From the NCBI GenBank assembly GCA_965206365.1, contig CBDBJL010000004.1, positions 141,144 through 205,143 on the forward strand: a stretch of 64,000 nucleotides of DNA. The letters run 5' to 3'. Source of the DNA: Alphaproteobacteria bacterium (GTDB taxonomy: Bacteria > Pseudomonadota > Alphaproteobacteria > JABAAW01 > JAHZMA01). Shown here piece after piece: positions 4,775-63,195 of the stretch. The first letter of the stretch is position 1, and each line of letters starts with the position of its first letter. The position numbers and the translations under genes are program-made. The notes under the pieces are model-generated. The model saw only the letters and a list, made by a program, of their open reading frames with translations, searched no databases and was not told the origin of the DNA.

Positions 4775-4788
4775 ATAGGAGAAAAACT

Positions 4789-5334: not shown

Positions 5335-5631
5335 ATGAGCAAACTATTTTACAAGGCCATGATTGAAGACATCCAAAACGAAAAATGCACCGACGCAGAG
5401 CTGGAAGCGCTGCTAAATGCCTTTGAGTACACAGTCAAGAAAATGGCCACCACGCTGGCCCGTAAAGCTTGGTACACGCTGGAAGATTACGCCACTGCCA
5501 AACAATACGGCATCGACCGCTTTACGCTGATGATTGAGCGCAAAGAAGTCCTTGGGCAAGAGCAATGGCATGGTGTTTTTGAATATGGCAGCAAGAACCT
5601 CAAAGTTATAGGAACACTGGAAAAGGATTAA
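5335..5631 (+). CDS. hypothetical protein
   Basis: AGGAGA RBS at 5321-5326; no recognised domain. Confidence 0.4.
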   Translation: MSKLFYKAMIEDIQNEKCTDAELEALLNAFEYTVKKMATTLARKAWYTLEDYATAKQYGIDRFTLMIERKEVLGQEQWHGVFEYGSKNLKVIGTLEKD

Positions 5632-35567: not shown

Positions 35568-37040
35568 TTACGGAAGGCAATTAAGATAAGTATCCACATC
35601 CCATTCAGTAACGGTATGGTTAAATCTTTCCCACTCGTCTGTTTTATATTCATGGAATAAACGATACATATCTCCAGGCATACCCGATTGCACCACCTTA
35701 TCTTTCGCAAGGGCTTCTAATGCTGCCCCTAAAGTCATAGGTAATTTTTGAACTTCCTTACCGGATTCCATCGCCGCATAAATATTACGCTCTTCTGGTT
35801 TACCGCAATCAATCTTATTATCCAATCCATCATCCACCGCCACAAGTATGGTTGTGCCCATCAAATAAGGATTTACCATTGAATCCACCGAACGAAACTC
35901 AAAACGACCCGGTGCAGAAATACGCAGACCTGTCGTTCTATTTTGAAAACCCCAATCTTTAAAGATTGGTGCCCAAAATCCAGTATCCCACAACCGACGA
36001 TAACTATTGACCGTAGAACAACCAATCGCAGTTAAAGCGTCCAAATGCTTTACAATGCCACCAATAGCGTGCTGACCAATAATTCCCGGCATTTGCGGAT
36101 CATCACCCGATGGCATGAAAGTATTTTCACCACCAGAAGAATAAGTGAAAACAGCTTCGTTAGCTGGAAGACCCCCTGATTTATGACCGAGCATTTTAAT
36201 TTTATCTTCACCACCCTTCCATAAGGAAATATTATGGTGACAACCATTAGCGGAAACACCCATAAAGGGTTTCGTCATAAAGCAAGCAATTAAACCAAAT
36301 TCACGCGCAACCTGTGCACAAATTTGCCGATAAGTCGATAATCTATCCGCATTACGCAAACAATCATCATAAGTCCAATTTAATTCTAATTGACCCGGTG
36401 CATCCTCATGATCTCCTTGAATAATATCCAAGCCCATCGCACGAGAATATTTAATTACCTGCATATAAACTTCACGCAAACTTTCAAATTGATCAATATG
36501 GTAGCAATATGGTCGCGAAAATCCACCATTGGGATTGCCATTTTCATCTTGTTTCAGCCACATCATTTCTGGTTCAGTGCCACAGCGTAGATGCATGCCA
36601 TGCTTATCTTGAAACTGCTGATGCAACCGTCGCAAATTACCACGTCCGTCTGATGTTAAAAAAGCGCCAGGATCCTGGCGCTCTTCGCGATTTCTAAATA
36701 AAGTACACCATACACGTGCAACTCGCTTATCCCATGGTAGTTGGCAAAAACTATCTGCCTCTGGAATTCCAACCAGCTCAGCTGCCTCAGGGCCATAACC
36801 AATATATTCATCATGGCGATTTTGAAACAAATTCACCGTAGCCCCATACACTAGTTGAAAACCTTTTTGTGCAATCGATTCCCAATGATCAGCGGGAATA
36901 CCCTTCCCACAAATCCGACCCGTTATCGAAACAAACTGTAAATATAAATATTCAACACCAAGAGAATCAATCTGTTTTCGCACCTGCTTAATCATATCGG
37001 CACGCCCGGGTGCCTCCACAAAACTTTCAATATCCGTCAT
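35568..37040 (-). CDS. gmaS: gamma-glutamylmethylamide synthetase (glutamine-synthetase type III-like)
   Basis: Glutamine-synthetase catalytic-domain signatures; heads the gmaS-mgsABC arrangement. Confidence 0.65.
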   Translation of the reverse strand: MTDIESFVEAPGRADMIKQVRKQIDSLGVEYLYLQFVSITGRICGKGIPADHWESIAQKGFQLVYGATVNLFQNRHDEYIGYGPEAAELVGIPEADSFCQLPWDKRVARVWCTLFRNREERQDPGAFLTSDGRGNLRRLHQQFQDKHGMHLRCGTEPEMMWLKQDENGNPNGGFSRPYCYHIDQFESLREVYMQVIKYSRAMGLDIIQGDHEDAPGQLELNWTYDDCLRNADRLSTYRQICAQVAREFGLIACFMTKPFMGVSANGCHHNISLWKGGEDKIKMLGHKSGGLPANEAVFTYSSGGENTFMPSGDDPQMPGIIGQHAIGGIVKHLDALTAIGCSTVNSYRRLWDTGFWAPIFKDWGFQNRTTGLRISAPGRFEFRSVDSMVNPYLMGTTILVAVDDGLDNKIDCGKPEERNIYAAMESGKEVQKLPMTLGAALEALAKDKVVQSGMPGDMYRLFHEYKTDEWERFNHTVTEWDVDTYLNCLP

Positions 37041-37896
37041 ATTTACTCCTAATTTCCAAATAAAACAGCGATAAATAAGATACTACTGTAACCAAAATGC
37101 CCACCGCCAATCACAATCAGTACTAAGGCGAATCACACTTTAAAGGACACCCTAATGAAGAAAGTAGGATATGTCAATTAACTTATGAGAAAAATGTTTG
37201 GATCAATAAAATTTATAACCCAAAATTATATCCATCACCCCATGTGAGTCGCATGATAACTACGCTAATCTCCAACTGAAAAACGATACCCAGCTGGGTA
37301 AAATTTATAATCACTACAAAATAAACTCTATCATTTCCCCTACACATAACAGAATCTCCCTGCTAAAACCCCTCAGTTTATTTTCAAATAACCGTTTTTC
37401 AAAAAAATCAAACGCACTAAATTTTTTAATCGCTTCTGTGATTTCAAATAAAATCTCGCAAACATGATATCTTGCGAAAAAAATTTTATACAGCTTCTAT
37501 ATTTCACTTTTTTTAAAAATCTATCCAATTTTTACACTTACTAGTTGTAATTATAGTCCTAATATTGTTAATTTCTTGTCAAATCAAAATCTTACTATTT
37601 ATGCAGTATTTTGGTGTTTCATCTCCCAAAAAACCTATACATACCGCTTAATGTAACTTTCATATCAAATGAAATACCAACATGCTCGTATATTCTGGAT
37701 ATCACCCAATAATAACGAGCCAACTGTTCATTTTGATACCTTCCGTAGCAATGCTTGAAAAAAATCAAACTACTTAAGCAAACCATATTACTTTTGGGAA
37801 AATGATCAACAACAGCTTGTGGTAGCGGAGCGGTTTTGATTTGTGGTATTCTACAAAATGATGTTGCTCTTAGTTTTGAATCTGTTGAGATTACCA

Positions 37897-37963
37897 TCCC
37901 CCCCTTGAATAATAATATGCGGGGGGATTTTAAGGGGGGTGGCCATCGGCTGGGCCACCCTTG
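37897..37963. repeat. G6/C6-armed nested palindromic element (family copy outside the prophage)
   Basis: tcccccccttgaataataatatgcgggggga followed by aaggggggtggccatcggctgggccaccctt. Confidence 0.6.
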
Positions 37964-38064
37964 ATTATAAAAAAATAGCGTTTAACGAGCGGGATTTACC
38001 CCTTGATCATAGAGATATTGAGCGATTTCTTTGCAGAAATCAAAATTCTGCTTTTCGGTATTTT

Positions 38065-39400
38065 CTAGCTATTAAAGTAAAGAGCAAGAAAATCAGAACT
38101 ATTGCGCTCTAACCCATCTTTGGCATGATCATAATCGCGTGTAATTTTTTCGGGTAAATTATAAACATCCGCGCCATATTGCACCATAAGCTTAAAAGAA
38201 TTCAAAATATCACCGCTAGAATCCTCTTTATACTGGTAATGCCAAGCCAACAGTGAGGCAGAAGTATATTAATAAAAATCGTAATAATTGGCAGATAATC
38301 TGGTAGGGTAAAGATTAGGATCTGCACCATATTCCAGCAATATTTTGGTAGTGGCTAAATTTTCTGGAGTTGGCTCTTCGATCATCCGATGCAGTAAACT
38401 ATAGTTATCATAATCATCATTATTAATATCTTGCCCACGGTTAATAAAAATTCTATTACCGGAAAATTATGGGCTTGAAGAGCACGACGAAACGAAGCAG
38501 CTGCAGAATATTTCGTATGTTTTACTAGGAAATCAAAAATTTCCGGATTAGAATTATGGGCGGCAAAATATAACGGGGTATCGGGTGTCATTAAGCTCTA
38601 ACCCTTCTGCAACTGCCTGTTTCACTTGTGCTAAAGTTACGGTTGCCAAAAATTGATAATCACTCTCTTTTGTAAGAATGCCAATATTATACAGATATTT
38701 CGCAATTTTCTTACAAGCATCATAATGATAACCATTTTCGTTATTAGGATACAATTCAGCATTAATAAAATATCTTTTCAATAAAGAAGACCGCATCATT
38801 TTTATAATTTCTTTCACCATAAATTTGGCTTCCACCGCCACCATAACCTCCATAAAGATATTCATTAAATAACATTATCCAACCTGCCCCCATAGGCTAA
38901 TAATAATTCAAATAGGGCTAATAATCTTATTCGTTGCTACAATATGTTCATCTGGAGCATCATAACGGGTAGCAATGATTTGTGAGTAAAGTGGTAGGTG
39001 TTGCAACAATGTCAAAATTCTCGCCATAAGAGAATAAATACGTATAGAAATTAGGATCTGCACCATATTCCAGCAATAATTTAACTTTGTCTAAATCACG
39101 ATTCTCTACGGCTCGATGCAAAGTGGTGTAGTCTTCATCATCAATAATATTAATATCTGCGCCAGCTTCCAGCAATAATTCAATTACCGGGATATTTTTT
39201 CCATTGATGGCGATGGCCAAAAGATCGGGAGTGAGGTATCGTTTTGCATAAACATCATAATAGCTATTTGTACTGGGAGTTTGTTAGAGTAAAAATTTGG
39301 CAATTTCAGGGTTAGGATTTTCAGCAGCATAATGTAGCGGTAAGAAATGCCCCTTCATAAGATCTGTTCTTATATTCATACCCTTAGGCAAGGGCATCCT
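38065..39400 (-). pseudogene. decayed ankyrin-repeat gene(s)
   Basis: At least four short minus-strand ORFs in different frames each encode ankyrin-repeat fragments (e.g. LLLEAGADINIID...TLHRAV). Confidence 0.5.
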
Positions 39401-39825
39401 TGACCTGTTTTAGCGTGGCAGTTTTCAGAAAATGATAATCTGATTGCTGTTGATTGGCATGGGCAACTACCATGATAAGGGCAGAGATACCGAATATAAT
39501 TTTCAACCATCTATATTCCATCTTTGCCCTGTATCTTCATAAAAATTGTAATCCCTATTTAAAATTACCAACAATCTTAATCAAAATTAATGTTTGACCC
39601 TTTATGTTGTGCATTTAAGTCTTTTTTAATTTTTTTAAGTGTTTCTTCGGTATGATTAAGGACATTATTTAAAAGTCTGATGCTACTTTCTTCTTTAAGT
39701 TTTATCGAGATTTCTTTGCCAAAAATTAAAATCCCTTTAATTACCTTTAACTTTGCCATAAAGCATGGTCCTTTCTAAAAAAAATGCTAGCTTTGTATGA
39801 GGGAAAATTCGCATCATCAAGAACT

Positions 39826-40611
39826 TTAGTAGTTAGAGAGAACGCCGATTTTGATCAGATAATTATCAAAGAAATCAAAATTGGCAAAATTGCCTTTCTT
39901 ATTTTTTGCTTTCACATCAGCGCCGTATTCGATTAAAATATCAATCATAGCAATCGTTTCTTCATAAGTGACATTACTAGTGGGCTCATATTGTTCATCT
40001 TCACTACATCCGCCACCTTCACTACACTCAATATAATGTTTTTCCCTATCGTATATTTGGTGTACGTATTTTCCATGAACAGCCTTAAAAAATGGGGTTT
40101 CACCATCATCATCACGGGCATTTACATCCGCCCCGGCATCTAGCAAAAGCTTGGTGATTTCAGCATTTTCAGTGTTATGCAAAGGCGTTTCTCCGTTAAT
40201 ACGATTACGGGCATTCGCATCTGCCCCTGCACTTAGTAACAGCTTAACAATTTCAGCATCGCGAGCCCAATGCAAAGGCGTATATTCCCAATAACTTTTG
40301 ATATTCACATCTGCCCCCTCTTCAATTAAGAAAATCGCAATCTCACTCCTTCCAGCAAGAAGAGCCCCAGGTAATAAAGTTTCACCATTTTCATCTCTGC
40401 TATTAATATCAATGCCCATTGCCAGTAATTCTTGAATATCAGCAAGGGTAGCGGTTTTCACATCAAAATAATATCTTATAGGATCTTCAATATCTACAAT
40501 TTCTTCCGCTTGCGCTATAACAAAAAAAAAGATTCCACCCATAAGAACACCCGTTATGAGTATGTTTATTAGCAAATTTGCGTGTTTGCTTTTTACCTTT
40601 AATTTTGCCAT
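39826..40611 (-). CDS. ankyrin-repeat protein with N-terminal signal/anchor helix
   Basis: Hydrophobic N-terminal helix followed by at least four ankyrin repeats (TPLHWA..., ETPLHNT..., ETPFFKA...). Confidence 0.8.
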   Translation of the reverse strand: MAKLKVKSKHANLLINILITGVLMGGIFFFVIAQAEEIVDIEDPIRYYFDVKTATLADIQELLAMGIDINSRDENGETLLPGALLAGRSEIAIFLIEEGADVNIKSYWEYTPLHWARDAEIVKLLLSAGADANARNRINGETPLHNTENAEITKLLLDAGADVNARDDDGETPFFKAVHGKYVHQIYDREKHYIECSEGGGCSEDEQYEPTSNVTYEETIAMIDILIEYGADVKAKNKKGNFANFDFFDNYLIKIGVLSNY

Positions 40612-40633
40612 AAATTATTCTCGTTTTCTAAAA

Positions 40634-40668
40634 AGATGCTAGCTTTGTTCATACAAAACTAGCATAAG
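40634..40668. promoter_or_regulatory. near-perfect inverted repeat upstream of the ankyrin gene; part of a 5' region duplicated at 39760-39795
   Basis: atgctagctttgt-N-acaaaactagcat; a similar ctaaaaa..atgctagctttgt leader also precedes the MAKLKV start of ORF 39577..39759. Confidence 0.35.
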
Positions 40669-40702
40669 TTTGCTTACATAACAAATAATATTTATGAAAT
40701 AT

Positions 40703-40930
40703 TTACTTACTTAAAATGCTGTTAGTTGTTTCTAAGATTTTTTTATATTCTGCTTTATCTTTTTCTGCTATTTCTGCTTTTTCACTCGCAGTTTTATAAA
40801 ATGTAGAAATTGAACTTATTGCCTCGTTAATTTTTATCATTGCCTTATTCACATCAGCAATGTTTTTTACGCATGGATTATCATTATTCCGATTTTTTGC
40901 TTCTAAAATTGCCGAGCGCATCGCCACCAA
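40703..40930 (-). CDS. hypothetical small coiled-coil protein
   Basis: 75-aa ORF, Lys/Glu-rich. Confidence 0.3.
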   Translation of the reverse strand: MVAMRSAILEAKNRNNDNPCVKNIADVNKAMIKINEAISSISTFYKTASEKAEIAEKDKAEYKKILETTNSILSK

Positions 40931-41028
40931 GGCGGCAATATCGCGTACCTTATCAATATTATAAATATTAGGATATTTAGAATCTTCAGATTTCTTTTTT
41001 ACTGCATTGTTAAATGAAAGATGGTATG

Positions 41029-41340
41029 CTTTAAGGTGGCAGTGATGTGCGACTATCTGCGAAGTGCTACGATATGGTGCGATGAGGTTGATTCCTGAAT
41101 AGATATTAAACTGCTATAATTACCTATAAATGCTTATAAACAAGGCTTCTAAGCTGTAAGGCTTGGTTTAAGATTATTCATAAACTGCCATAAAACGTGC
41201 TTCAAGTGGCTTATTTTTTTGCTTTTGCAACATGGCAGTCTCGAAATTTAGAAAACTAAAAAAAAACTTTTAAACCCTATATTTTAGGGTTTTGATTTCT
41301 AACATGGCAGTCGAAATCATCTTAAGGTGGCAGTTTAATT
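41029..41340. repeat. cluster of short direct repeats with a CGAAA core (candidate Mu-type transposase-binding sites at the prophage terminus)
   Basis: Exact 13-mer ttaaggtggcagt at 41029 and 41321; exact 12-mer aacatggcagtc at 41229 and 41301, both followed by (t)cgaaat; inverted copy aactgccat at 41183. Confidence 0.4.
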
Positions 41341-41350
41341 CTGATTAATC

Positions 41351-42100
41351 CTAAACATTTTCGGGATATTCATCCCAAGTTTTTCCGCGCCATTTACGAC
41401 CTGTTTTTTTCTTATTAACACCGCCCCATTGCTTAAAGAAGAAGGCTGTGCCAGTTTTTCGGCATAATGCTTCAATTTCAGCTATCCATTCATCATCCAT
41501 ATTTCGTGCCGAAGGGCCGCTCTCGCCACCTATAATTGCCCAATCAATCGCCGTTAAATTAGCCTTAGATACCGAAGCTAATAAGGGCTCAAACGATACA
41601 AAGCGGATGGTTGCCGGCATAAGTCGTAATTCATCAAGCCTGTCAATATAAGCGTTGCTCTCAACACTTACGCCGATCCAGATATGCGCAGGCAATTGAT
41701 AATTATATTTCATCAAAAATTCTCTAGCGCGTTCCGGGCGTTTAGTTAAAATTTGAAATTCATGCCAATCGGCTTTCAGCATCGTATTAAATGCTTGTTT
41801 AATAAATTTATCGGGGACGGCTTCATAAAATAAATCCGACATAGAATTAACAAATATTTTCGCGGGTTTACGCCATTTTAGGGGTTGTGATAACAAATTT
41901 TCATCAAAACTGGCTTTTCCGGTCCAATTGGCTTTACCTTCACGTTTAACAGTGCCAATATAAAGTGGGTGTTGCATGGCTTGCAGGCGTTCTGCCATTC
42001 GAATTGCATAGCAATTTTTGCAACCTGGCGAAACCTTAAAGCAACCTTTCACTGGGTTCCATGTGCGGTCAGTCCATTCAATTTTGCTAATTTCACCCAT
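41351..42100 (-). CDS. phage Gp37/Gp68-family protein (DUF5131)
   Basis: N-terminal IEWTDRTWNPVKGC..SPGCKNCYA signature. Confidence 0.65.
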   Translation of the reverse strand: MGEISKIEWTDRTWNPVKGCFKVSPGCKNCYAIRMAERLQAMQHPLYIGTVKREGKANWTGKASFDENLLSQPLKWRKPAKIFVNSMSDLFYEAVPDKFIKQAFNTMLKADWHEFQILTKRPERAREFLMKYNYQLPAHIWIGVSVESNAYIDRLDELRLMPATIRFVSFEPLLASVSKANLTAIDWAIIGGESGPSARNMDDEWIAEIEALCRKTGTAFFFKQWGGVNKKKTGRKWRGKTWDEYPENV

Positions 42101-42103
42101 TTA

Positions 42104-42466
42104 TTACCTCTTATAATTATTTTTTAATTGATTAATTAACACTTTAATCGTTTGTTGATCATTATCAGAAAGTTTTTTTAAATCACGATACATTGCAACT
42201 AATCCAGAATCCTCATCAGAAGCATCAGGATTTTCACCAACCAAATCAGCTATTCCTACTTGAAAAAAGTCTGCCAATCTTTTGAGAAGGTCAAGTGACG
42301 GATTTTTTGCTTTGCCAGTCTCTAAATCCCAAATATGAGTTTTGGATGCACCTACCCTAGTCGCAACATCTTGAAGAGAAATAGATTTTTTAAGTCTTAA
42401 TTGTTTTAATCGCAATGCTAATGACACTTCTTTTAATTCGTAATCGGTATATTGTTCTCTATTCAT
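42104..42466 (-). CDS. XRE-family HTH transcriptional regulator
   Basis: LSLQDVATRVGASKTHIWDLETGK...PSLDLLKRLADFF, a classic HTH_3 pattern. Confidence 0.7.
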   Translation of the reverse strand: MNREQYTDYELKEVSLALRLKQLRLKKSISLQDVATRVGASKTHIWDLETGKAKNPSLDLLKRLADFFQVGIADLVGENPDASDEDSGLVAMYRDLKKLSDNDQQTIKVLINQLKNNYKR

Positions 42467-43076
42467 AATCGCTATCCTTTTCTAGCAATTTTCTACAAGG
42501 GGGAATCCATACAAGACTGGTATTTTTTTGTGGATTTTTCTCCCAAACAAACCACGCATAAGCTGTTGCGCTTTTAATTTTGCTATCAAGTCGCCCTTTT
42601 ACTAAAGGTACGCGTTCGGCAAATGGGGCAAAGATTGTGGGGGGTGTTTGAGAAAATAAACGGTTATATCGCCCTATAGATTCTGTAAAATTACCGCGAC
42701 AAAACATGGCAACGCCATCGGTGGCAAGCCCTAACGATTTTGAAATAAAACCCTCAGCTTTGTTAAAAGGGGGATTTGTAATTACCCATTGGGGCGGATG
42801 GCAATAAAAATCATCGCTTAAAAAATCTTTTACATTAGCTTTTTCATAGCCGTAATCGTGAATGTCGGCGGCATAGACATTTTCAAAATAATCCGCTAAG
42901 GTCTCCGCCATATACCCCCTGCCGCCAAGCACGCTTTTATTTGATAAAGTGCTATTTAATACATATTTAATCAGGGCGCGCGTTGCCCAGGGCGGGGTAG
43001 GAAAATCATCTAAGCCATCGCCAATTTCATGCCGTTGCGCCATTATTGCGTAGGATCCTTTGGGTATCATTTTCAA
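42459..43076 (-). CDS. phage Dam-type DNA N6-adenine methyltransferase (putative)
   Basis: NPPF motif (WVITNPPFNK) and N-terminal FPTPPWATRAL, resembling the phage Dam MTase family; adjacent to the C5 MTase gene. Confidence 0.5.
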   Translation of the reverse strand: MKMIPKGSYAIMAQRHEIGDGLDDFPTPPWATRALIKYVLNSTLSNKSVLGGRGYMAETLADYFENVYAADIHDYGYEKANVKDFLSDDFYCHPPQWVITNPPFNKAEGFISKSLGLATDGVAMFCRGNFTESIGRYNRLFSQTPPTIFAPFAERVPLVKGRLDSKIKSATAYAWFVWEKNPQKNTSLVWIPPCRKLLEKDSDYE

Positions 43077-43080: not shown

Positions 43081-43935
43081 TTAAATTAAAATTAATTGGT
43101 TGTTATTTTCGGTTTCATACTCAAGATTCTTGCAATGAATTTTCAAGAGTAAGCCACGCATATGCGCTTGCCAATGGCATAACGGAATTTCCGCAACTTC
43201 TAATTCTGTCCACCCTGTTGGCAAACCCATCATCCATTCGGTGAATTGAGGGTTTAAAATCATCTCTAACTTTTTGCCATTTTGGGGAGTCGAGTCTTGG
43301 CGCGAAAGGGGGCATCCATTCCACATGTGTGCGACTTGATCCCGCAAGGAGGCAGGCATTTTTCTTTCTAATCTCTTCTTGAAAGTTTCCTCGCTTAGCA
43401 CCCCCCCATCGCCTCTGTAGCTTTTATGGTGCGCCATAATAAATAATCGCTCTCTTTTGTGAGGCGCACCAAGCTCCTCCGCGCTGAACAAGCCAGCCGC
43501 AACTTTGTAACCCAAACATTGAAGATCTTTTGCGACATCGTAAAATCCATTAGATAAATGTTGGCGGACATTTTCAAAGAAGCAGATTTTTGGCTGAATT
43601 TCCCTGATAATTCTTGCGATTGCGTTCCACAAATAGGCGGGGTCGTTTTTGCCAAGTCGTCTACCTGCTGCGCTGAATGGCTGGCAGGGGTATCCGCCAG
43701 CAATGCAATCCACGATTCCACGCCATGGCTGGCAATCAAAGGTGGCAATATCCGCTCAAATAGGCGCGCAATCCAAGTTTCCTGCTTGCATTTGTTTTGC
43801 CAAAATTTCGCAGGCATATGTTTCCCTCTCCACGTAACATATAACGCGGCTGTTTGGCTTTGCCAATTTAATTCCGAGTTCGAGTCCGCCGATCCCGGAA
43901 CATATTGATAAAATTTTTGGGGAACAAAAATCCAC
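43081..43935 (-). pseudogene. DNA cytosine-5 methyltransferase with an in-frame TGA (complement 43756-43758) and a C7 tract (43391-43397)
   Basis: One frame carries motif I ICSGIGGLELG, motif III/IV DIATFDCQPW...GGYPCQPFSAAG, motif VI FFENV, motif VIII HKRERLF and a motif-IX-like EWMMGLPTGWT; the only interruption is a single TGA between motifs II and III; probable GTG start near 43935. Confidence 0.7.
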
Positions 43936-43938: not shown

Positions 43939-44580
43939 TTAAATATCCTTTCGCAACCACTTTCCAAACCTGACGATTAATTTATCGAGGGTTTCATTAT
44001 CTAAATATCTATGGTTCATGCCGTAACCATTGCGGTCACACCAATTATCGAGTGCAAACCGGCTGGCATTGCTCTTCACTTTATCTTGCCAAAACAATTT
44101 TTCCCATTGCGCCCGCACGATGTAAATTCGTGGATTTTCATCGTCAATGAATTGCACTTTACCCTCGCGCGCCAGCATTGCTTTTAAGGCCTCAATGGCT
44201 TTATACGCCACTTGTGGGGTCATCCAATTTTCATGGTCAACCTTAATTTGCCTCTTTACAAAGGCGCGAATGGCATGATCGCTACGGTTTTCAACCACCC
44301 CTAACCAATATGCAGAAATCCAAAGCGCGCGCAATTTTTTCACAACCTCATTGTTTGGTAGGGTCGAGGTTGTTCCCCCCTTGCCAATAATCTCATCGAT
44401 AACCTTGTAAATTTGCCCTATTTGCATTTTGCCGGCAGAACTTGTATTTGTAATTCGTTTGTACAGTGCGCGCTTGCTGGCATCATCAATGCCATTATTG
44501 TTAATTTCGATGTGCAATTTAGCCAGGGCTTTGCGCTTTTCTGGGGAAGCTGGAGATTTTGCGGGTGTTTTAGCCATCAT
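43939..44580 (-). CDS. gemA: Mu gp16/GemA-like protein (DUF1018)
   Basis: LWISAYWLGVVENRSDHAIRAFVKRQ...IEALKAM aligns with the recalled Mu GemA pattern. Confidence 0.55.
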   Translation of the reverse strand: MMAKTPAKSPASPEKRKALAKLHIEINNNGIDDASKRALYKRITNTSSAGKMQIGQIYKVIDEIIGKGGTTSTLPNNEVVKKLRALWISAYWLGVVENRSDHAIRAFVKRQIKVDHENWMTPQVAYKAIEALKAMLAREGKVQFIDDENPRIYIVRAQWEKLFWQDKVKSNASRFALDNWCDRNGYGMNHRYLDNETLDKLIVRFGKWLRKDI

Positions 44581-45034
44581 TATTTCCTTTCAATATTGCG
44601 CCGATAGCAGAATAGCCGGCTTTATCGAGCCAGCTATCGCTGTGCGCGGGGTTGTTCATTAAACGCGCTGTTTTTAGCGCATCCAAACATAAAGCCACTT
44701 GTTGTGGCTTAATTTTTGCGCGTAAAATCACGCTCCACAGCTTGGCAATTTCGGCAAAATGCTGGTTAGGGTCGCCATAAATCGCCCGCGATTTCAGAGT
44801 TTCTGCTAAATCTTGGCAAAAATCCTTATCTAAGGGTTGCTTGGCGGGGGGCACAGAATGCTCCCTGCCTGTATTTAGTTGCTGGATTCTGGCTTTCGCC
44901 CATTTCGGGCAATCAATATTAACACCCGTATCATCAAGGGCATGTTGCCATTTATCATCTTCTTCCCGCTCATTAATAATTCGCGAGATTGCACGCGCCA
45001 AAAGATATTTTTTCAAATGAAATTCAGCTATCAT
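44570..45034 (-). CDS. hypothetical protein (possible helicase-associated)
   Basis: 154 aa, immediately downstream of dnaB in the same operon. Confidence 0.35.
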   Translation of the reverse strand: MIAEFHLKKYLLARAISRIINEREEDDKWQHALDDTGVNIDCPKWAKARIQQLNTGREHSVPPAKQPLDKDFCQDLAETLKSRAIYGDPNQHFAEIAKLWSVILRAKIKPQQVALCLDALKTARLMNNPAHSDSWLDKAGYSAIGAILKGNNDG

Positions 45035-46479
45035 TTTTTCTCTAAATTTTCAAAAAGGGTGTATTTTGGCTCAAAATATAACGCCACTTCGCCAATTGCG
45101 CCGTGGCGTTGTTTTTGCACCGATAGAACGGCTTTATTTTTTGAATTTATTAATAATTCATTATGTTTTTCCTGCCTAAGCGCAAATTTTGCATCACTTT
45201 CAACATCGCGTTGTTCGGGTGTTTTGCGTTCAAGATAATATTCAGCACGATACAAAAACATCACCACATCGGCATCTTGTTCAATTGCGCCAGAATCTCG
45301 CAAATCAGAAAGTTGGGGGATCGGCGGGTCGCGTTGCTCTACCGCGCGCGATAATTGCGATAATACCAAAACCGGAATATCTAATTCTTTAGCAAGGGCT
45401 TTTAAGCCTTGCGATATCGATGTAATTTCATTTACTCGTCCATCATATTTGCCGCCCGCTTTCATTAATTGCAAATAATCGATAACGATTAAATCTAAAC
45501 TTTGGCGGCGCATTAATCGCCTAGCCCGCTGCCTAATAATCGCCACATTTATGGCGGGTGTTTGGTCAATAAAAATGGGCATTTGGTCGATAATGGCGGC
45601 GGTTCTGGCCAGGGTAGAAAATCCACGCGCAGAGATATTGCCGCGGCGCATATCATCGCTGGCAATTTTACACGCGCCAGATAAAATTCGTGCCGTTAAT
45701 TGTTCGGCACTCATTTCCAGTGAAAACACGGCTACGCGTCCGCCTTCGATTTCTTCATTATCAATATTTTTAAATTTGCTAGCAACATTATAGGCAATAT
45801 TTAACGCTAGTGCGGTTTTGCCCATGCTGGGGCGGGCAGCTAAAATAATCAAATCGCTTTTATGCAGCCCGCCCAAAATTTTATCAATATCATAAAATCC
45901 GGTGCTAATGCCGCTAATACCACCTCCGCGTTTAATTGCTGCGCTAATATTTTGAATTGCTGAATGTAAATGGGTTTTAATATTAATTAATTTCGCGCCA
46001 TCTTCGCCTTTTTCCGCCAATTCGAACAGAGCAGTTTCTTGTTCCTCAAGAATTTCATTGCCGGTTTTAGTAACATCGCCAGATTGTGCAATTTCAACAT
46101 ATTGTTGATTTATTAAAATTAATTCGCGTTTTAAGGCAAGGCTGGCAAGCGTTTTGGCATATTGTCCAACAGAGATCATTGAAAATACATTATTCGCCAA
46201 AGTCTGCAAATAATTATCCCAATCAGCATCAAGATGTGGAATTTCTTTTAGCAAATAAGCCAATGTATCTTCGTTTGCAGTTAGCCCTTCAGTCACTAAT
46301 TTGGATATTTCCGTGAAAATAATACGATGAACGTCATGATAAAAATGGCTTGGCTGACTGATATCAACAATTTTTTCAAAAACCTTATTATTGCGCAAAA
46401 GCGCGCCTAGCAAAGCGGCTTCAATTTCGATGGAATAAGGCATGGCAGCAGGCGCAGGTTTTTTAAGATAATCAGCCAT
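45031..46479 (-). CDS. dnaB: DnaB-family replicative DNA helicase
   Basis: N-terminal DnaB domain and RecA-like core with Walker A ARPSMGKTALAL; 482 aa. Confidence 0.9.
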   Translation of the reverse strand: MADYLKKPAPAAMPYSIEIEAALLGALLRNNKVFEKIVDISQPSHFYHDVHRIIFTEISKLVTEGLTANEDTLAYLLKEIPHLDADWDNYLQTLANNVFSMISVGQYAKTLASLALKRELILINQQYVEIAQSGDVTKTGNEILEEQETALFELAEKGEDGAKLINIKTHLHSAIQNISAAIKRGGGISGISTGFYDIDKILGGLHKSDLIILAARPSMGKTALALNIAYNVASKFKNIDNEEIEGGRVAVFSLEMSAEQLTARILSGACKIASDDMRRGNISARGFSTLARTAAIIDQMPIFIDQTPAINVAIIRQRARRLMRRQSLDLIVIDYLQLMKAGGKYDGRVNEITSISQGLKALAKELDIPVLVLSQLSRAVEQRDPPIPQLSDLRDSGAIEQDADVVMFLYRAEYYLERKTPEQRDVESDAKFALRQEKHNELLINSKNKAVLSVQKQRHGAIGEVALYFEPKYTLFENLEKK

Positions 46480-48104: not shown

Positions 48105-48947
48105 TTACCCTTTTAAACGCGCTTTTTCAAGCGCAACAGTGGTGGCAGATGGTTTTTTTACATTGCCATTTATATCAAGTTCTATTTTTTTACGCGCTAA
48201 GGGGGTGGTTACTTGTAAATCGATGGGTGATTTGCCATCAGCTGTTAAAGTAACTTTATTTAAGCCATTATTTTTGGCATGATTCCGCAAAAGTTCAATC
48301 GATGTTACTACGCGGCGTACTTGCCCGGTGGATTTTTCGTGGACGCGTTTCATTAATTCTGGGCAAATTGCAATATCTTTCGAGTATAATTTGGCTAATT
48401 CCTGGCAATCTTTTACAGTTACCCCTTGGGCAGGTTGAAATTTTAAAATCCTATTATGGAAACGCTCGCTTTCTTTTAGATTTTTTGGCAGATTTTCTTC
48501 ACCAATCAAAATAATCGGTGTTTTTGCGCCATCATGGATCTCACGAATGAGATCGCACATCTTTCTATTCACCAAATAATCAGCTTCATCAATTATTAAA
48601 ATTCGCTTTTCATAGCTTAAAGCCTTGATAATTTTTTTCACCAATTCGTGCAAAGTATCATTTTTTGGAAAATCGATATTTATGGCATCTAAAATTTGCT
48701 TGCACAAAACTTTAGGCGTCCAGCTCCAACCCACATGGATGTTGGCGGCACCATATTGATTTGCCCCGCAAGTTGCACTAAAGGTTTTGCCATAACCGCT
48801 AAAGCCGTGGAAAGTGGCAATTCCTGGCAGATGCGATGGGCGCGTTTTCAGCGTTTCAATCAATTGATTAAAGATTGTAATATTCCCCAAGGGTGCCATT
48901 CGCACCTCCTCGGGTGTTGTTAAAAATGTGGGGTTAATTTCAGTCAT
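48105..48947 (-). CDS. MuB-like AAA+ transposition ATPase
   Basis: Walker A GFSGYGKTFS, Walker B LIIDEAD; directly downstream of the MuA-like gene. Confidence 0.7.
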   Translation of the reverse strand: MTEINPTFLTTPEEVRMAPLGNITIFNQLIETLKTRPSHLPGIATFHGFSGYGKTFSATCGANQYGAANIHVGWSWTPKVLCKQILDAINIDFPKNDTLHELVKKIIKALSYEKRILIIDEADYLVNRKMCDLIREIHDGAKTPIILIGEENLPKNLKESERFHNRILKFQPAQGVTVKDCQELAKLYSKDIAICPELMKRVHEKSTGQVRRVVTSIELLRNHAKNNGLNKVTLTADGKSPIDLQVTTPLARKKIELDINGNVKKPSATTVALEKARLKG

Positions 48948-49026: not shown

Positions 49027-51210
49027 TTATCCATGAGTCTCCAACAAATACTCCTGACCAAAAGTCTCTTCCATCATTTTGAAAGATCTATAGTTTGGCG
49101 ATTGCTGATAAATTTTTAACCATTGCGCATCCTCAATATTGATAAGCTCGCCATTTGCGATGGTTTTTTCCAAAGCTTTAGATCGTTGAAACAAAGTGGC
49201 AGGGGTTGGCGCAATTTGCACCACATTAGCGGTTGAATTTTCAGCTGATTTTTGTTCAGATGCTAGTTCTGGCGCAATTGTCCGGTTGCTGATTTTTTGT
49301 GATTTTCTAGGCAAAACATGCAAATTATTCGGCGGAATTTCGCCTTCAATAAAGCCATGCTTAATCGCATGTTCACGCCGTTGGGCATGTTTAAAATTTT
49401 CTAAAATTTTGTAAAAATCGTCATTATCAATCTGTTTTGCGGCATGGGCGATTTCGCGCTTGATCTCTTTGTTATGCGCGCGCTTGGTGGCTTTGGCAAT
49501 ATGTGCCACCGCCATGCGGTTAATACCTTCAAGCTCGGCATTATAAGCGGTGAATAAATATTCGCCATTTTCAACCCCAGATACGTAGATTTGCCCCATA
49601 TCTTCTAAATCCATCGCCACTTGTACAGTGTGTCCCATATAAAGATCTATCTCATGGGCTATAAAATAATGCCGATCCGCGCGAATACCTTTTTTGCCAA
49701 TAACGCGGGTGCCATCACCACCGGCTAATTTTGCAAACAAATAATGCATAATCGTGGGATCTTCCAAAGTTTTAATCTCACCGGTATAATTGGCTAATCT
49801 TTCAGCGGGCGAGCAACCAATCCCTTTGTGGAATCCCTGATAATAATCCTCTGCCACCCAATTGCTGGCGCGCCGCGCCAATTCATCGCGGGTTAATTTT
49901 ACTTTGCTAAACCGATCAATTTTTTCACCATTCGCCCGGGCGTTGCGATAGGCAAAGCTCTGCCTGTTTTCAATTTCAGTTTTTTCGGTAACATTATGCC
50001 CGGCATAACCGGGGTTCAGGCGCATAAAAGTGTCGTTAATAGTGCCGATAGCGCGTTCGATTCCGCCCTTTTCATGGGGTGAATAGGGGTTGGTTAAATC
50101 AATATTAATCCCGGTTTTAAACATAGCGTGCTTAAACCATTTGCTGGTGAAATCGCTACCATTATCGGTGCGCAAGCGTTCGGGCATGCCCCATTCGTTA
50201 ATTGCCCGCCGAATTAACCGTAAGGATCCGTGGGTGCTGGGTGAATCTGTAATTTCTACCAATAATCGCCGTGCATACATATCGGCGATCACATAAATAT
50301 TATATCTGCCATCATCGCAGATCACATCGGCGGGGCTAGCATCGATTTCCCATAATTCATTCGGGCGGGTAAGGTGGGCATACATTTCGCCCAAAGACAG
50401 CGCATATTTGCTGCGGGCTTTATCGGGGTTGCGTAATTTTAGCGCATCTGCGGGGTTTTTACGTGCCCAAGCATTAAACCAGTTGGCAATTTGGCGCGTT
50501 GAGGGAATTTCTTGAAACCCCTTTGCCAATAATAATTGATGGATTGTTTTGCCTGCCAAGCGAGTGCGCGTAAAATGCGCGATAATCTGGGTTTGTAGGT
50601 CGCGATTTGCATCAATAATGCTAGTGCCTTTGCGGTTGCCAAACTTGCCGGCAAGGCTTTTGAAATCGCCAATATTAACGGCTTTGCGCCACCGTAAAAC
50701 ACTGGCACGCGAAATATTAGTAAAGGCAAAATCGCCTGTAATTTTTCCCGAATTAAAATCATCTACAAAAGCGTCAATTCCTGCCATAACACCAATTTTA
50801 TGCGCTAATAAATAAGCGTTAAAAGCGTTGGCAATATCGGCGCGCGCGATACCGCGATCAATAGATTTAGGCAAGGTAGCAATGGTGGGCGAGGGGTTGC
50901 CCATATTGCTACCTCTATCAGCTGGTGGTAAGGCTTTGCCGGAACCACCCTCCTGATTCTGCACTCTTCCCTTTAGATGATAATTGGCGGGGGGGTTAAG
51001 GGGGGTGTCGCTCGGCGCGACATCGCACCCCCCTTTATAAATTGCAGGGATTTTATATTCGGCACCCCCGCCCTGATCGCGGCGAATTTGGCTTTGCCAG
51101 CCATCACGCTTGGCTTTATCGACAATAGCCCGCCGGGTTTTGGGCAGAGTGGCGATTTGCAATTTTGCAATTTCACCGGCAGATAGCCATATTTTGGCAC
51201 TATCTGGCAT
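49027..51210 (-). CDS. MuA-like DDE transposase
   Basis: N-terminal HTH and rve-type DDE core (WEIDASPADV, YVIADMYARRLL); carries an in-frame palindromic element at 50985-51034. Confidence 0.8.
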   Translation of the reverse strand: MPDSAKIWLSAGEIAKLQIATLPKTRRAIVDKAKRDGWQSQIRRDQGGGAEYKIPAIYKGGCDVAPSDTPLNPPANYHLKGRVQNQEGGSGKALPPADRGSNMGNPSPTIATLPKSIDRGIARADIANAFNAYLLAHKIGVMAGIDAFVDDFNSGKITGDFAFTNISRASVLRWRKAVNIGDFKSLAGKFGNRKGTSIIDANRDLQTQIIAHFTRTRLAGKTIHQLLLAKGFQEIPSTRQIANWFNAWARKNPADALKLRNPDKARSKYALSLGEMYAHLTRPNELWEIDASPADVICDDGRYNIYVIADMYARRLLVEITDSPSTHGSLRLIRRAINEWGMPERLRTDNGSDFTSKWFKHAMFKTGINIDLTNPYSPHEKGGIERAIGTINDTFMRLNPGYAGHNVTEKTEIENRQSFAYRNARANGEKIDRFSKVKLTRDELARRASNWVAEDYYQGFHKGIGCSPAERLANYTGEIKTLEDPTIMHYLFAKLAGGDGTRVIGKKGIRADRHYFIAHEIDLYMGHTVQVAMDLEDMGQIYVSGVENGEYLFTAYNAELEGINRMAVAHIAKATKRAHNKEIKREIAHAAKQIDNDDFYKILENFKHAQRREHAIKHGFIEGEIPPNNLHVLPRKSQKISNRTIAPELASEQKSAENSTANVVQIAPTPATLFQRSKALEKTIANGELINIEDAQWLKIYQQSPNYRSFKMMEETFGQEYLLETHG
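50985..51034. repeat. G6/C6 palindromic element inserted in frame in the transposase gene
   Basis: gggggggttaaggggggtgtcgctcggcgcgacatcgcaccccccttt encodes KGGCDVAPSDTPLNPP within MuA. Confidence 0.6.
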
Positions 51211-51697: not shown

Positions 51698-51916
51698 TCA
51701 ACCCCCTGCCAAGATGGTTAGCCACAGGGCTGAATTAAGTAACAAGGTGGCGGTGATGTAAAAAAATATAATAAGGTCAGCTAAATGATCTCGGCTGGTG
51801 GGCATAAAAAAAGCACAAATAATATTTGTTAAAATGCCAGAATGCAGCAGATAATAAAAAATGCAGGCAAACGCACCATTTAACGCAAGGGTGGCGATGA
51901 TGGTAATCGGCATCAT
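51698..51916 (-). CDS. small membrane protein
   Basis: 72 aa with two transmembrane helices. Confidence 0.4.
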   Translation of the reverse strand: MMPITIIATLALNGAFACIFYYLLHSGILTNIICAFFMPTSRDHLADLIIFFYITATLLLNSALWLTILAGG

Positions 51917-52863
51917 CTTTCACCCAACTCGATGCGCAAGCCAGCCCATTGCATAAATTCATTTCGTGATTTTTGGTTGGCGGGACTCCACGCTTTTCGT
52001 AAAGCTGTTAATTGCACTTCTACCGTTTTCTGCTGATGCCCCAATTGGGCGTTTCGTAGCCGATTTGCTTCAAACCCTTCCGGGTCGGCAACACACATCT
52101 CGGCAATGTAGGGTTGCGAAAATTCTTTCGGGTCATCAACCATCAGCCGCACAATCTCGGCTTGTTTGGTATAATCGCCACAATAATTAGCAATTTTGCG
52201 CAACGCGCCATTGCTAAAGGGTGTTTTGGCTTTTTGCAAAGCTGCTTTAGTTTCCGCACCCAAATTATTATACATCGCGATGTCGCGGTTGATTGTAGAG
52301 GGGGAAAGCCCAGTTAATTGTTGAGTGGTTTTGCTAAATTCGGCAAACATATCTAGCGTTTCGGAGCGTTTACCCCCCGTATGTTGATTACCTCTATCTC
52401 CGCCATGTGGCTTTCCGTTAATTTCAACCCAAATTTCTTTGCGCTCAGTTAAAAACGTTGCCCGATCAAGCGCATTTAATTCATGCCGAATTAAATTGGC
52501 GTCGATCTCGGCAAGTTTGGCTTGTTCAGGGGTAAATTCAACAATCTCGGCTTTAATTTCGGTAAAATCCAATAATTTGCAGGCTGCTAGCCGATGCGCC
52601 CCATCAATTAAAATATATTCAGGATTATGATGCGGGGGGTTAAGGGGGGTTATCGCAAGGTGCTCTATACCCTCTTCGAGGGGCGGGGCTCCGTCTTCAG
52701 CACCGAGAAGCGATACCGCACCCCCCTTATTATAATGCACCAAAACAGGCTGTAACACGCCGTTTAGCTTAATATTTTCAGCCAAAATTTCCACATACGG
52801 TTGGCTAGTTTCGCGCAACCGCGGCGGAATTTCAATATTGACAATTTTTATGGAATCAGACAT
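51913..52863 (-). CDS. ParB-like nuclease-domain protein
   Basis: ParB/Srx motif ILIDGAHRLAAC; carries an in-frame palindromic element at 52648-52750. Confidence 0.65.
   Translation of the reverse strand: MSDSIKIVNIEIPPRLRETSQPYVEILAENIKLNGVLQPVLVHYNKGGAVSLLGAEDGAPPLEEGIEHLAITPLNPPHHNPEYILIDGAHRLAACKLLDFTEIKAEIVEFTPEQAKLAEIDANLIRHELNALDRATFLTERKEIWVEINGKPHGGDRGNQHTGGKRSETLDMFAEFSKTTQQLTGLSPSTINRDIAMYNNLGAETKAALQKAKTPFSNGALRKIANYCGDYTKQAEIVRLMVDDPKEFSQPYIAEMCVADPEGFEANRLRNAQLGHQQKTVEVQLTALRKAWSPANQKSRNEFMQWAGLRIELGER
52648..52750. repeat. G6/C6 palindromic element inserted in frame in the ParB-like gene
   Basis: atgatgcggggggttaaggggggttatcgcaagg...gagaagcgataccgcacccccctt; same family as 62606-62715 and 62945-63165. 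Confidence 0.65.
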
Positions 52864-56640: not shown

Positions 56641-56673
56641 CAGGTTCAGCTAGATGCCTTGCTGATGATTTTA

Positions 56674-56696
56674 ATATAGGGCATTATGCCCTATAT
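56674..56696. promoter_or_regulatory. 11-bp-arm perfect palindrome containing the ATATAGGG motif (candidate operator)
   Basis: atatagggcat-t-atgccctatat; related TATAGG motifs at 53875-53881, 53908-53916 and 41272-41291. Confidence 0.45.
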
Positions 56697-56755
56697 TGTC
56701 AACAGTAAAATTCAATAAAAATATCTTTTTTCAAAAAAAAGTGCTTTTAGATGAT

Positions 56756-61348: not shown

Positions 61349-62959
61349 TTGATGAAGAAACAAATCCAAAAACCCGAAATGCAAGAAATCGCCACCGCTG
61401 GCGGTTTAGACGATATTAGCCGGTATTATAGCGGTGCCCCGCACGATGCTGATTATCGGCAATCTGCGCTTGCCAACCAAGTTGGCAACGATGAGGCTTG
61501 GCACAAGGCTGCAGAATTTGCCCGTGCCGATGGGCAAGTAGCCGCCTGTATGGGGCAACGGCATCTTGCAGTTACCTCGTTCGCTTGGGAGGTGATACCG
61601 GGCGATGATAGTAAAATAGCGCAAGATGTGGCTGATTTTATTACCCAGCAATTTGAACGGATTCGCTTCAATGATATTTCAGAAAAATTATTATGGGCGC
61701 GTTTTTACGGGGCTTCAGTTGCCGAGGCATTATGGGGCATGGAAGGTAATAAAATAATTTTGCAAGATTTGCGGGTACGGAATCTAAAAAGATTTCATTT
61801 TACCCCCGGTGGCGATGCGCTTTTGCGCACCCATACAAACCCTAATGGGCAAATTGTGCCAGAAAATAAATTTATAATTTTGCGATCAGGCTCGCCTCAT
61901 TCTGATAATCCATTTGGCGAGGGGTTAGCAGATCACCTTTATTGGCCCGTGCGGTTGAAAAAGCTAGGGGTGGCAGAATGGACTTTGTTTTTAGAAAAAT
62001 TTGCCAGCCCCACCATCACCGGCAAATATCCGGCGAATGCCAGCCAAGATGAACGCGATATCTTGTTAAATATTGCCAAATCGGTACGCCGCGATACCGC
62101 TGCGGTGATGCCAGATTCTATGATGCTAGAGATTTTAGAAATCAGCAGGCGTGGCGATGGCGGCTATGTAACGTTTGCAGATTATATGGATAAAACTATC
62201 AGCAAAATTATTATTGGGCAAACAATGACCACCGACGATGGCGCATCGTTAAGCCAAGCCCAAGTGCATAAAGTGGTTGCGGATCGGATTATAAAAGCTG
62301 ATGCCGAATTAATTTGCGAAGGCTTAAATGATACCATTGTTAAATGGTTATGCGGGTGGAATTTTGCAAACGCGCCCCAGCCCACTTTGCGCCGCATTAT
62401 GCCCGAGCCATTTGATGAAAAGGCGCGCGCTGAAACTTTGGCAACGCTTTATAATATCGGCTTTAAGCCCGATTTAAACCGCATTCAAGAAGATTTTGGC
62501 GAAGGCTTTGCAGAGAGAGATTTAAGTGCAGGAGATTTTGGTAATAAAAACCCCCCGCCCACGCAATCTACAAAAAATAATTTTGCTGAAGCTAAAGAAA
62601 ATCCTGACCCCCCCTTAAAAGATAATGAGCGGGGGGATCTTAAGGGGGGGCATCGCAAGGGGTTGAGCTCGTCTTCAATCCCGAGAAGCGATGTCGCACC
62701 CCCCTTAATAAATAAGGATAATATCGATAATATTGTGGATTTGCTAGAAGAGGGGGATCGGCTAGCTTTTGCCGAAATGCTGAATCCCATGCGCAAAGCC
62801 TTAGCAAAAGCCAAAAGCTTTGATGATTTAAACCGGCGTTTAACGCGCCTTGAAGGCAAGGGCAAAATCAACAAATTAGGCAAATTGTTGCAAGCCGCCA
62901 CTGGCTTTGCCCATATTAAAGCCAGTGATGACATAAAGGATGATCCCCTTGAAAAGTAA
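61349..62959 (+). CDS. Mu gp29-like portal protein (DUF935), with an in-frame palindromic insertion near the C-terminus
   Basis: DUF935-like N-terminus; element 62606-62715 translates in frame (DPPLKDNERGDLKGGHRKGLSSSSIPRSDVAPPL). Confidence 0.75.
   Translation: MMKKQIQKPEMQEIATAGGLDDISRYYSGAPHDADYRQSALANQVGNDEAWHKAAEFARADGQVAACMGQRHLAVTSFAWEVIPGDDSKIAQDVADFITQQFERIRFNDISEKLLWARFYGASVAEALWGMEGNKIILQDLRVRNLKRFHFTPGGDALLRTHTNPNGQIVPENKFIILRSGSPHSDNPFGEGLADHLYWPVRLKKLGVAEWTLFLEKFASPTITGKYPANASQDERDILLNIAKSVRRDTAAVMPDSMMLEILEISRRGDGGYVTFADYMDKTISKIIIGQTMTTDDGASLSQAQVHKVVADRIIKADAELICEGLNDTIVKWLCGWNFANAPQPTLRRIMPEPFDEKARAETLATLYNIGFKPDLNRIQEDFGEGFAERDLSAGDFGNKNPPPTQSTKNNFAEAKENPDPPLKDNERGDLKGGHRKGLSSSSIPRSDVAPPLINKDNIDNIVDLLEEGDRLAFAEMLNPMRKALAKAKSFDDLNRRLTRLEGKGKINKLGKLLQAATGFAHIKASDDIKDDPLEK
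62606..62715. repeat. G6/C6 palindromic element inserted in frame in the portal gene
   Basis: ccccccccttaaaagataatgagcggggggatcttaagggggggcatcgcaagg...gagaagcgatgtcgcaccccccttaat. Confidence 0.65.
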
Positions 62960-63195
62960 TGATGCGGGGGGATCACAAGGGGGGATATCGCAAAGCATTG
63001 GGCGTACCGCCTCAATGTTGAGAAGCGATACCGCTCCCCCCTTGAAAAGTAATGATGCGGGGGGATCACAAGGGGGGATATCGCAAAGCATTGGGCGTAC
63101 CGCCTCAATGTTGAGAAGCGATACCGCTCCCCCCTTGAAAAGTAATGATGCGGGGGTCAAGGGGGTTATGCCGATTAGGCATTCCGCACCCCCTT
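62945..63195. repeat. tandem array (2 exact 93-bp units plus partial) of the same palindromic element between portal and F genes
   Basis: Unit gaaaagtaatgatgcggggggatcacaaggggggatatcgcaaagcattgggcgtaccgcctcaatgttgagaagcgataccgctccccccttg at 62951, 63044 and partially at 63137. Confidence 0.8.

Follow-up and report, generated by a model that had tools for sequence, protein, structure and literature searches.

Between the early genes of a Mu-like prophage and a region of ankyrin genes, an alphaproteobacterial contig carries about 300 bp of non-coding DNA crowded with short repeats. What is this cluster: the end of the prophage, on which its transposase would act, a replication or partition site inside the phage, or a piece of host DNA that lies outside it? 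A sequence-only reading had proposed a candidate transposase-binding end, with iterons for the phage-encoded DnaB as the alternative. We examined the cluster in the stretch of 64,000 nucleotides that surrounds it (hereafter the window), together with related phages and phage-free relatives of the host.

The prophage and its left flank

The Mu-like prophage runs rightward from position 41351. Its early operon lies on the minus strand, from ~53.9 kb down to 41351, and encodes, in the order of transcription, a ParB-like protein, a MuA-like transposase, a MuB-like ATPase, Gam, DnaB, a DUF6378 protein, GemA, a split C5 methylase, an HTH protein and a DUF5131 protein. The plus strand carries the genes for an S24-type repressor, a Mor-like protein, lysis proteins, gp27, the terminase and a Mu-type portal; gp48 is also among the Mu-type genes present, and the late genes of this strand run past the window edge at 64000. 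The early genes to which we refer below are the following.

41351-42100, minus strand: DUF5131 (Gp37/Gp68 family) gene, the last gene of the leftward early operon (Pfam E = 4e-90)
42104-42466, early operon: XRE-type HTH protein
48105-48947, minus strand: MuB-like AAA+ ATPase (AAA_22/TniB)
49027-51210, minus strand: MuA-like DDE transposase (Pfam rve, Mu-transpos_C and a weak HTH_Tnp_Mu_1)
51913-52863, early operon, just upstream of the transposase gene: ParB-like protein

The element encodes both a cognate DDE transposase and an AAA+ target-capture ATPase. The transposase exhibits at most 31% identity to phage records (tblastn, 25 records listed of 27 matching), and its closer relatives are two metagenomic proteins only, P0002 (47% identity) and P0003 (41%). 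A protein scan of IMG/VR found no close relatives of this phage.

Several features of the early operon lie outside the classical Mu gene set. This transposable phage possesses its own DnaB-type helicase gene beside that of a DUF6378 protein (44570-46479), and the transposase gene is closely preceded by that of a ParB-like protein, in the window as well as in two related phage contigs, L001 and L003. L003 has the DUF6378 domain in fusion with a DnaA C-terminal-like domain. The C5 cytosine methyltransferase is encoded in two pieces, its N-terminal part by an ORF at 43081-43713 and its C-terminal part by one at 42459-43076. The split may be natural, or the gene may be a frameshifted pseudogene, which would point to an old prophage.

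To the left of the prophage, the segment from 24.5 to 37.0 kb consists of host methylamine-utilisation genes, the last of which encodes a gmaS-type glutamine synthetase (35568-37040, minus strand). The following segment (37.1-41.0 kb) contains small ORFs and ankyrin genes, of which one, of the secreted type, is intact (39826-40611) and the paralogues are frameshifted. At the far left of the window, positions 1-6000 exhibit a G+C content of ~51% compared with 38-44% elsewhere, and are possibly another acquired region.

Repeats, half-sites and hairpin in the cluster

The cluster is 324 bp long (41027-41350), extending from a 5'-TG at 41027 to the stop codon of the DUF5131 gene at 41351. With its immediate flank, it comprises the following features.

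40703-41026, minus strand: flanking, apparently non-phage DNA, the 3' remnant of a P0363-family gene (575 aa), called as a 72-aa ORF at 40703-40921
41027-41042, plus strand: putative left terminus (5'-TG, 41027-41028) and terminal 16-mer TGCTTTAAGGTGGCAG, placed by its likeness to the terminal 16-mer of L001 and by the limit of flank homology at ~41014
41031-41043, plus strand: repeat S1, the 13-mer TTAAGGTGGCAGT, overlapping the terminal 16-mer
41048-41082, plus strand: four half-sites (TGCGA, TGCGA, TACGA, TGCGA) making up two 20-bp units, candidate transposase end-binding sites
41110-41116, minus strand: weak inverted copy of the second motif, TAGCAGT in GCAGTTTAAT (inverted repeat, 10/10 with 41330-41339)
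41183-41191, minus strand: inverted copy of the second motif, ATGGCAGTT (repeat search and core count)
41229-41247, plus strand: S3, direct copy of the second motif, AACATGGCAGTCTCGAAAT (direct repeat)
41256-41292, minus strand: hairpin AAACCCTA-N5-TAGGGTTT (41272-41292) with a T-run (41256-41264 on the minus strand), from the terminator scan and folding
41301-41317, plus strand: S4, direct copy of the second motif, AACATGGCAGTCGAAAT (direct repeat)
41322-41334, plus strand: S5, direct copy of TTAAGGTGGCAGT, 16 bp from the DUF5131 stop codon

The array of half-sites, which was absent from the earlier list of repeats, reads TGCGA-N5-TGCGA-N5-TACGA-N5-TGCGA. The four half-sites follow each other in exact 10-bp phase, at +21 to +55 from the putative terminus. 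This phased TGCGA/TACGA pattern is unique in the window, where 0.01 occurrences are expected, and no comparable array was found in 200 shuffles. The phased TGCGA half-sites are the best candidates for the sites of the transposase.

The second motif has the core RTGGCAGT. The exact repeats reported by the sequence-only reading belong here; we recovered all of them at their positions, and comparison with shuffles indicates an enrichment far above chance. The 13-mer TTAAGGTGGCAGT has exactly two copies (S1 and S5), and its family, allowing up to two mismatches, counts six matches in the window against 1.2 expected. The repeat AACATGGCAGTC(TC)GAAAT is present as S3 and S4, which differ by a 2-nt insertion and both contain CGAAAT. 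The TGGCAGT core occurs 17 times in the 64-kb window compared with 6.95 +/- 2.7 times in shuffles, and five of these 17 copies fall within ~300 bp (41037-41334), at irregular spacings of 23, 72, 49 and 147 bp. Counting 5-6 copies, the second motif is found in both direct and inverted orientation in the cluster, the overall arrangement being mixed. A scan of IMG/VR for the AACATGGCAGTC..GAAAT motif returned single matches per stretch only, consistent with chance. Taking the two motifs together, several repeated putative sites (the four half-sites and the 5-6 second-motif copies) are found within ~50-300 bp of the presumed terminus.

The terminal 16-mer, in its outward reading, is CTGCCACCTTAAAGCA-3' and ends in CA. 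Terminal dinucleotides 5'-TG...CA-3' have been stated for BcepMu-type rve elements (PMC2628397). The TG at 41027 is where a terminus is predicted, and its offset equals that of the CA at 8325-8326 of L001; further TGs are close by at 41022, 41043 and 41046. With the terminus at 41027, the left flank (41022-41026) reads TGGTA.

The hairpin corresponds to the palindrome AAACCCTATATTTTAGGGTTT at 41272-41292. The terminator scan revealed four sites compared with 0.6 expected, and the palindrome is terminator-like on both strands: it exhibits an 8-bp stem with three GC pairs, T-runs on both strands and a folding energy of -9.1 kcal/mol. The minus-strand U-run begins 5 nt past the stem, so that the terminator is probably a weak one. 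The hairpin and its T-run are probably the end of the early transcript. The minus-strand transcript has a fold z-score of -3.4, for which the inverted TGGCAGT copies plausibly account, and a search of 36900-42200 with the covariance models of Rfam 15 (E <= 1) returned nothing relevant. The palindrome had also been connected, through the motif TATAGGG, with a "hub". This connection is weak, as CCCTATA has six copies against five expected, which is chance level, although all six lie in the phage part. The "hub" motif meant is probably a near-perfect palindrome (ATATAGGGCAT/TATGCCCTATAT) at 56672-56697, ~100 bp upstream of the Mor-like gene (56791), which looks like an operator or like the terminator of the preceding minus-strand genes.

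Ends of related phages and the border with the flanking DNA

The transposase relative P0002 is carried by the ENA contig L001, the MuA of which is 47% identical by BLAST and 51% identical by alignment to that of the window. The early operon of L001 ends with GemA at 7971, and beyond it we identified the following features.

7980-8066: four perfect 22-bp tandem repeats
between these and the fifth copy: an AT-rich hairpin with a T-run
8119-8139: fifth repeat copy, followed by a spacer of ~130 bp
8272-8308: four ATCCC half-sites in steps of exactly 10 bp
8311-8326: terminal 16-mer GTTCCAGCTTATATCA, the inferred terminus, from sequence alone

Read in the same direction, the window exhibits the stop codon, S5 and S4, the hairpin with its T-run, S3, ~145 bp with two inverted copies, four TCGCA half-sites and the 16-mer. 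The terminal 16-mers of the window and of L001 (GTTCCAGCTTATATCA-3' in outward reading) are identical at 11 of 16 positions and both end in CA; the probability of this likeness is roughly 0.001-0.003 by a binomial estimate uncorrected for the choice of offset, the computed value for at least 10 of 16 being 0.003. From the last half-site to the end there are 24 nt in L001 and 25 nt in the window, with the same phasing and orientation, and the terminal regions measure 355 bp and 324 bp, respectively. The second motifs are also alike, the minus strand of S4 (TCGACTGCCATGTTA) matching the core of the L001 repeat unit (TCGAGTTCCAAGTTG) at 11 of 15 positions (p about 0.03); both likenesses to L001 are of modest significance. 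On its inward strand the L001 half-site array reads GCGGGATAAGGTGGGAT, the same motif as in the ends of more distant relatives. Downstream of its inferred terminus, L001 exhibits a good sigma-70-like promoter (by eye), two small genes (one of them retropepsin-like), a REP-like cluster and the host acs gene.

The more distant relatives are the IMG/VR stretches L101, L108 and L116. They carry CGGGAT/TGGGAY arrays in ~10-bp phase just inside inferred TG termini, the end of L101 reading TGAACCGGGATATGATGGGATAA... and those of L108 and L116 reading TGTRRAGAGACC...CCGGGAT...TGGGAY. In L116 and L108, the terminal motif ATGGTTTGACGT recurs further inward in direct and inverted orientation. The ends of these uncultured relatives and of the IMG/VR contig L113 resemble that of the window in having 3-5 half-sites at ~10-bp spacing just inside a putative TG terminus, and, in L001, L108 and L116, a second motif at the terminus that is repeated inward in both orientations. 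The half-site itself differs, being TGCGA in the window and CGGGAT/TGGGAY or ATCCC in the relatives, although the TGCGAY of the window and the TGGGAY of the relatives differ at one position. Unlike the window, L101, L108 and L116 follow the standard Mu layout with the end beside the transposase, all of these being predicted ends. A scan of IMG/VR for the half-sites gave more than 120 matches, many of them within a few hundred bases of stretch ends and mostly pointing inward, which is an impression rather than a formal count.

The parallel with L001 bears on the iterons proposed as an alternative. In its broader form, this explanation takes the cluster for an iteron or centromere-like array, serving either as origin of the DnaB/DUF6378 module or for the loading of the ParB-like protein, unrelated to transposition. 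Iteron origins such as lambda ori and P1 oriR, as well as P1 parS with its box A and box B, consist of short asymmetric direct and inverted repeats around an AT-rich segment. The cluster is similar, its direct repeats lying on both sides of a stretch of 88% A+T (41250-41274), in a phage that encodes DnaB, a DUF6378 protein and a ParB-like protein. Furthermore, the four 22-bp tandem repeats of L001 are iteron-like and contain TTATCCTCA, by eye one mismatch from a DnaA box, and L001 encodes a protein with the DnaA C-terminal domain. However, L001 has no DnaB, DUF5131 or HTH gene and yet keeps the same architecture, and the DnaA_C protein encoded by L001 has no domain in common with the DUF6378 protein encoded in the window, so that the two phages offer no initiator in common. 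The TGGCAGT copies are irregularly spaced, unlike the repeats of iteron origins, the DnaA-box-like matches are only relaxed 9-mers in AT-rich DNA, and the array abuts the junction of phage and host DNA. We therefore consider an origin or centromere unrelated to transposition to be quite improbable. It is possible that the ParB-like protein acts at the second motif alongside an end function. The XRE-type HTH protein was also considered as the binder of the cluster and was rejected, as L001 lacks its gene.

A change in copy number falls at the cluster. Five ORFs at 38960-40921 were looked up by exact sequence, namely the intact ankyrin gene, two ankyrin fragments and the ORFs of 60 and 72 aa; each of their products was found on two contigs, one of 220,017 bp, which is that of the window, and one of 405,079 bp. 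A single contig each was found for DUF5131, the HTH protein, Gam, MuA and gmaS, as well as for the products encoded at 37213-38591. The 405,079-bp contig carries no phage gene among those tested. This identical ankyrin segment of at least 2 kb without the tested phage genes places its own right boundary within 40921-41351, that is, at the cluster. As no gmaS of more than 90% identity was found in another genome of the collection, the second ankyrin copy most likely resides in the same genome. On the near side, the flank is 100% identical to residues 495-575 of P0363, a 575-aa protein carried by a third contig, and degenerate homology can be followed back to ~41014 with none beyond. Judged by ORF products, the limit of the phage sequence thus appears to map to ~41014-41029, the left edge of the cluster.

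In the intact ankyrin protein, an N-terminal segment is hydrophobic and signal-like. The 405,079-bp contig and another of 108 kb (both NCBI/ENA and probably from one assembly) encode related ankyrins at 55-58% identity. Ankyrin genes thus seem both to multiply and to decay in this bacterium, which is perhaps host-associated.

If the boundary were displaced to the right, the cluster would be host regulatory DNA, or chance or duplicated sequence, upstream of the 72-aa ORF and outside the phage. The cluster does lie upstream of this ORF, and the frame of the ORF is open to 41113. The repeats are, however, far above chance, and a related phage, which sits in another host context, has the same arrangement behind its last early gene. 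A Mu-type phage moreover cannot do without terminal DNA that is non-coding, and the first repeat lies as little as 16 bp from the DUF5131 stop codon. We give this explanation a very slight chance. As to the 72-aa ORF itself, its open frame includes 61 codons upstream of the first possible start and 64 upstream of the called ATG; its sole outside homologue, P0242 (85 aa), matches the sequence ahead of the called ATG.

A displacement to the left has more in its favor. In the two closest phage-free relatives (L018 and L019, gmaS 85-86% identical), a DAO-family gene is located 45-55 bp upstream of gmaS, and this adjacency is found in 36 of the 80 genomes sampled. The similarity of the window to phage-free relatives ends within ~50 bp of the gmaS start (about 48 bp upstream), and no DAO remnant or neighbouring gene was found beside the gmaS of the window, which places the beginning of foreign DNA near 37087. 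This DNA opens with TGTAACCAAAATGCC..., that is TGTAACC, followed by the decamers GCCAATCACA and GCGAATCACA at a distance of 22 bp. The IMG/VR Mu-like contig L113 begins with the same TGTAACC. If the true left end of the phage were at ~37087, the 3.9 kb between 37087 and 41027, that is the ankyrin region (37.1-41.0 kb), would be phage cargo and the cluster would be internal, namely the junction of early operon and cargo with a terminator and sites for another phage protein. A single insertion would then explain the break between DAO and gmaS, synteny being lost at ~37087 rather than at 41027; the foreign DNA would start as L113 does; and ankyrin genes are known on a phage, the Wolbachia phage WO.

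We at first favored 37087 as the true end, for the synteny break and for a G-rich 42-bp element at 37898-37939 that is 86% identical to copies at 62608-63156 and is also present in L001. The same element is found in the phage-free relative L018 and in L003; it is accordingly a REP-like repeat of the host lineage and no evidence for cargo. This, together with the copy-number boundary at the cluster and the position of the L001 array, of the type seen in this clade, ~300-340 bp past its last early gene and before its small downstream genes, made us drop 37087. The decamers at 37087 are also unlike the half-site arrays of the relatives and number only two, the identical ankyrin segment exists on another contig without the tested phage genes, and the related ankyrins (55-58%) occur on two further contigs of similar provenance. 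An end at 37087 would require that both the L001 parallel and the boundary between single-copy and two-copy genes be called coincidence; we regard it as unlikely. The break at 37041-37140 could be a transposable-element relic or pseudo-end, or the edge of an ankyrin island. A likeness to GTGATTSGC at 37104-37137, matching L001 at 9576-9587, proved uninformative, lying inside the REP-like repeats of L001.

The 42-bp element belongs to a G/C-run palindromic family (CCCCCCTTGA..GCGGGGGGAT..AAGGGGGG..ATCGC) with members at 37898-37939, 62608-62649 and 62945-63156 of the window, 420-640 of L018, 9500-10050 of L001 and 8041-8082 of L003. It includes a perfect 93-bp tandem repeat of 2.3 copies that spans the portal gene end as well as the interval ahead of the Mu F-like gene. 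These elements, which lie between host genes in one relative and also within three related phages, look like REP- or MITE-type repeats common to hosts and their phages.

A probable left end and its possible workings

Our preferred reading makes 41027-41350 the left terminal region, of attL type, in a transposable prophage whose genes are laid out as in BcepMu. On the sequence evidence given above we hold this to be probable. The idea of a prophage end, as first put forward, is thereby supported in its main part, by the position of the cluster at the phage/non-phage boundary beside the last early gene, by the BcepMu layout and by the L001 parallel. Its other part, the comparison with the binding sites of Mu, found no support beyond the pentamer CGAAA, and the TGGCAGT/CGAAAT repeats are lesser candidates for transposase sites than the phased half-sites.

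The Burkholderia phage BcepMu (NC_005882) provides the nearest layout. Its early operon, which includes the rve-type transposase gene, is also transcribed toward the left end, and its last early gene lies 364 bp from the left terminus compared with 324 bp here. Both have a 5'-TG terminus (a putative one in the window) and repeated sites beside it, and in BcepMu a GC-rich inverted repeat (by eye) is found between the last gene (gene 1) and the terminal sites. The motifs are unrelated: BcepMu exhibits GATATTTCC twice in its first 46 bp, whereas the window exhibits four phased TGCGA. Unlike the window, BcepMu has no obvious second motif family. An inverted copy is visible at the right end of BcepMu, whereas the window covers the left end only. 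BcepMu is absent among the 25 listed of the 27 phage records that match the transposase (tblastn).

The attL of Mu comprises the sites L1-L3 with the consensus TGNTTCAYTNNAARYRCGAAAR. The cluster resembles it in having several transposase sites (candidates here) within a few hundred bp of a TG terminus, in their mixed orientation, in the spacer between terminal and inner sites, and in the CGAAA of two of its repeats. The 22-bp Mu consensus is unmatched here beyond the CGAAA(T) of S3 and S4 (aligned by eye). Mu attL lies beside the repressor and transposase genes, whereas the end in the window is distal to the early operon, and the architecture of the window comprises two motifs, unlike that of Mu attL.

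If the cluster is an attachment end, its working can be imagined as follows, with binding, cleavage and synapsis modeled on what is known of Mu and BcepMu (in part from PMC2628397). The early operon is transcribed leftward, toward this end. From the TG at 41027 inward, the order is the terminal 16-mer, the two 20-bp half-site units, the second-motif copies, and the hairpin with its T-runs. The MuA-like transposase would bind the four phased TGCGA half-sites, and the hairpin would stop the early transcript inside the prophage and block read-in from the flank. The bound transposase would then pair with matching inverted sites at the right end and nick at the terminal CA-3', and the transposase and the MuB-like ATPase would transfer the ends into target DNA. 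For the sites of the RTGGCAGT family, candidate binders are the transposase itself, for which they would be inner sites, its N-terminal domain (the weak HTH_Tnp_Mu_1) and the ParB-like protein.

We suggest, tentatively and as a rather doubtful proposition, that the end is bipartite, a second and lineage-specific motif family being built into the att end as a separate cis element. Its members, on the same tentative footing, would be RTGGCAGT in the window, the 22-bp tandem units in L001 and ATGGTTTGACGT in L116. The second motif could be a transposition enhancer for the N-terminal winged-helix domain of the transposase, or a loading array for the ParB-like protein. Less likely than such a bipartite end is an outer pseudo-end at 37087, formed by the TGTAACC site, with which the phage could take the ankyrin segment along.

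The cluster is, on our preferred reading, an ordinary feature, the att end of a transposable phage, in a previously undescribed phage lineage; what is mildly new is only the two-motif architecture common to uncultured relatives, and the current understanding of transposable phages is unchallenged. A terminus at ~41027 would define the boundary of the prophage, making the ankyrin genes flanking host DNA and not phage cargo, and predicts the sequence of the right end along with a 5-bp target duplication TGGTA. It also provides concrete candidate sites for a transposase that is so distant from those in phage records. The parallels in L001 and IMG/VR point to a search rule for the ends of uncultured Mu-like phages, namely phased 10-bp half-sites together with a second repeated terminal motif. 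If the bipartite reading is true, a whole clade of Mu-like phages would organise the synapsis of its ends otherwise than Mu.
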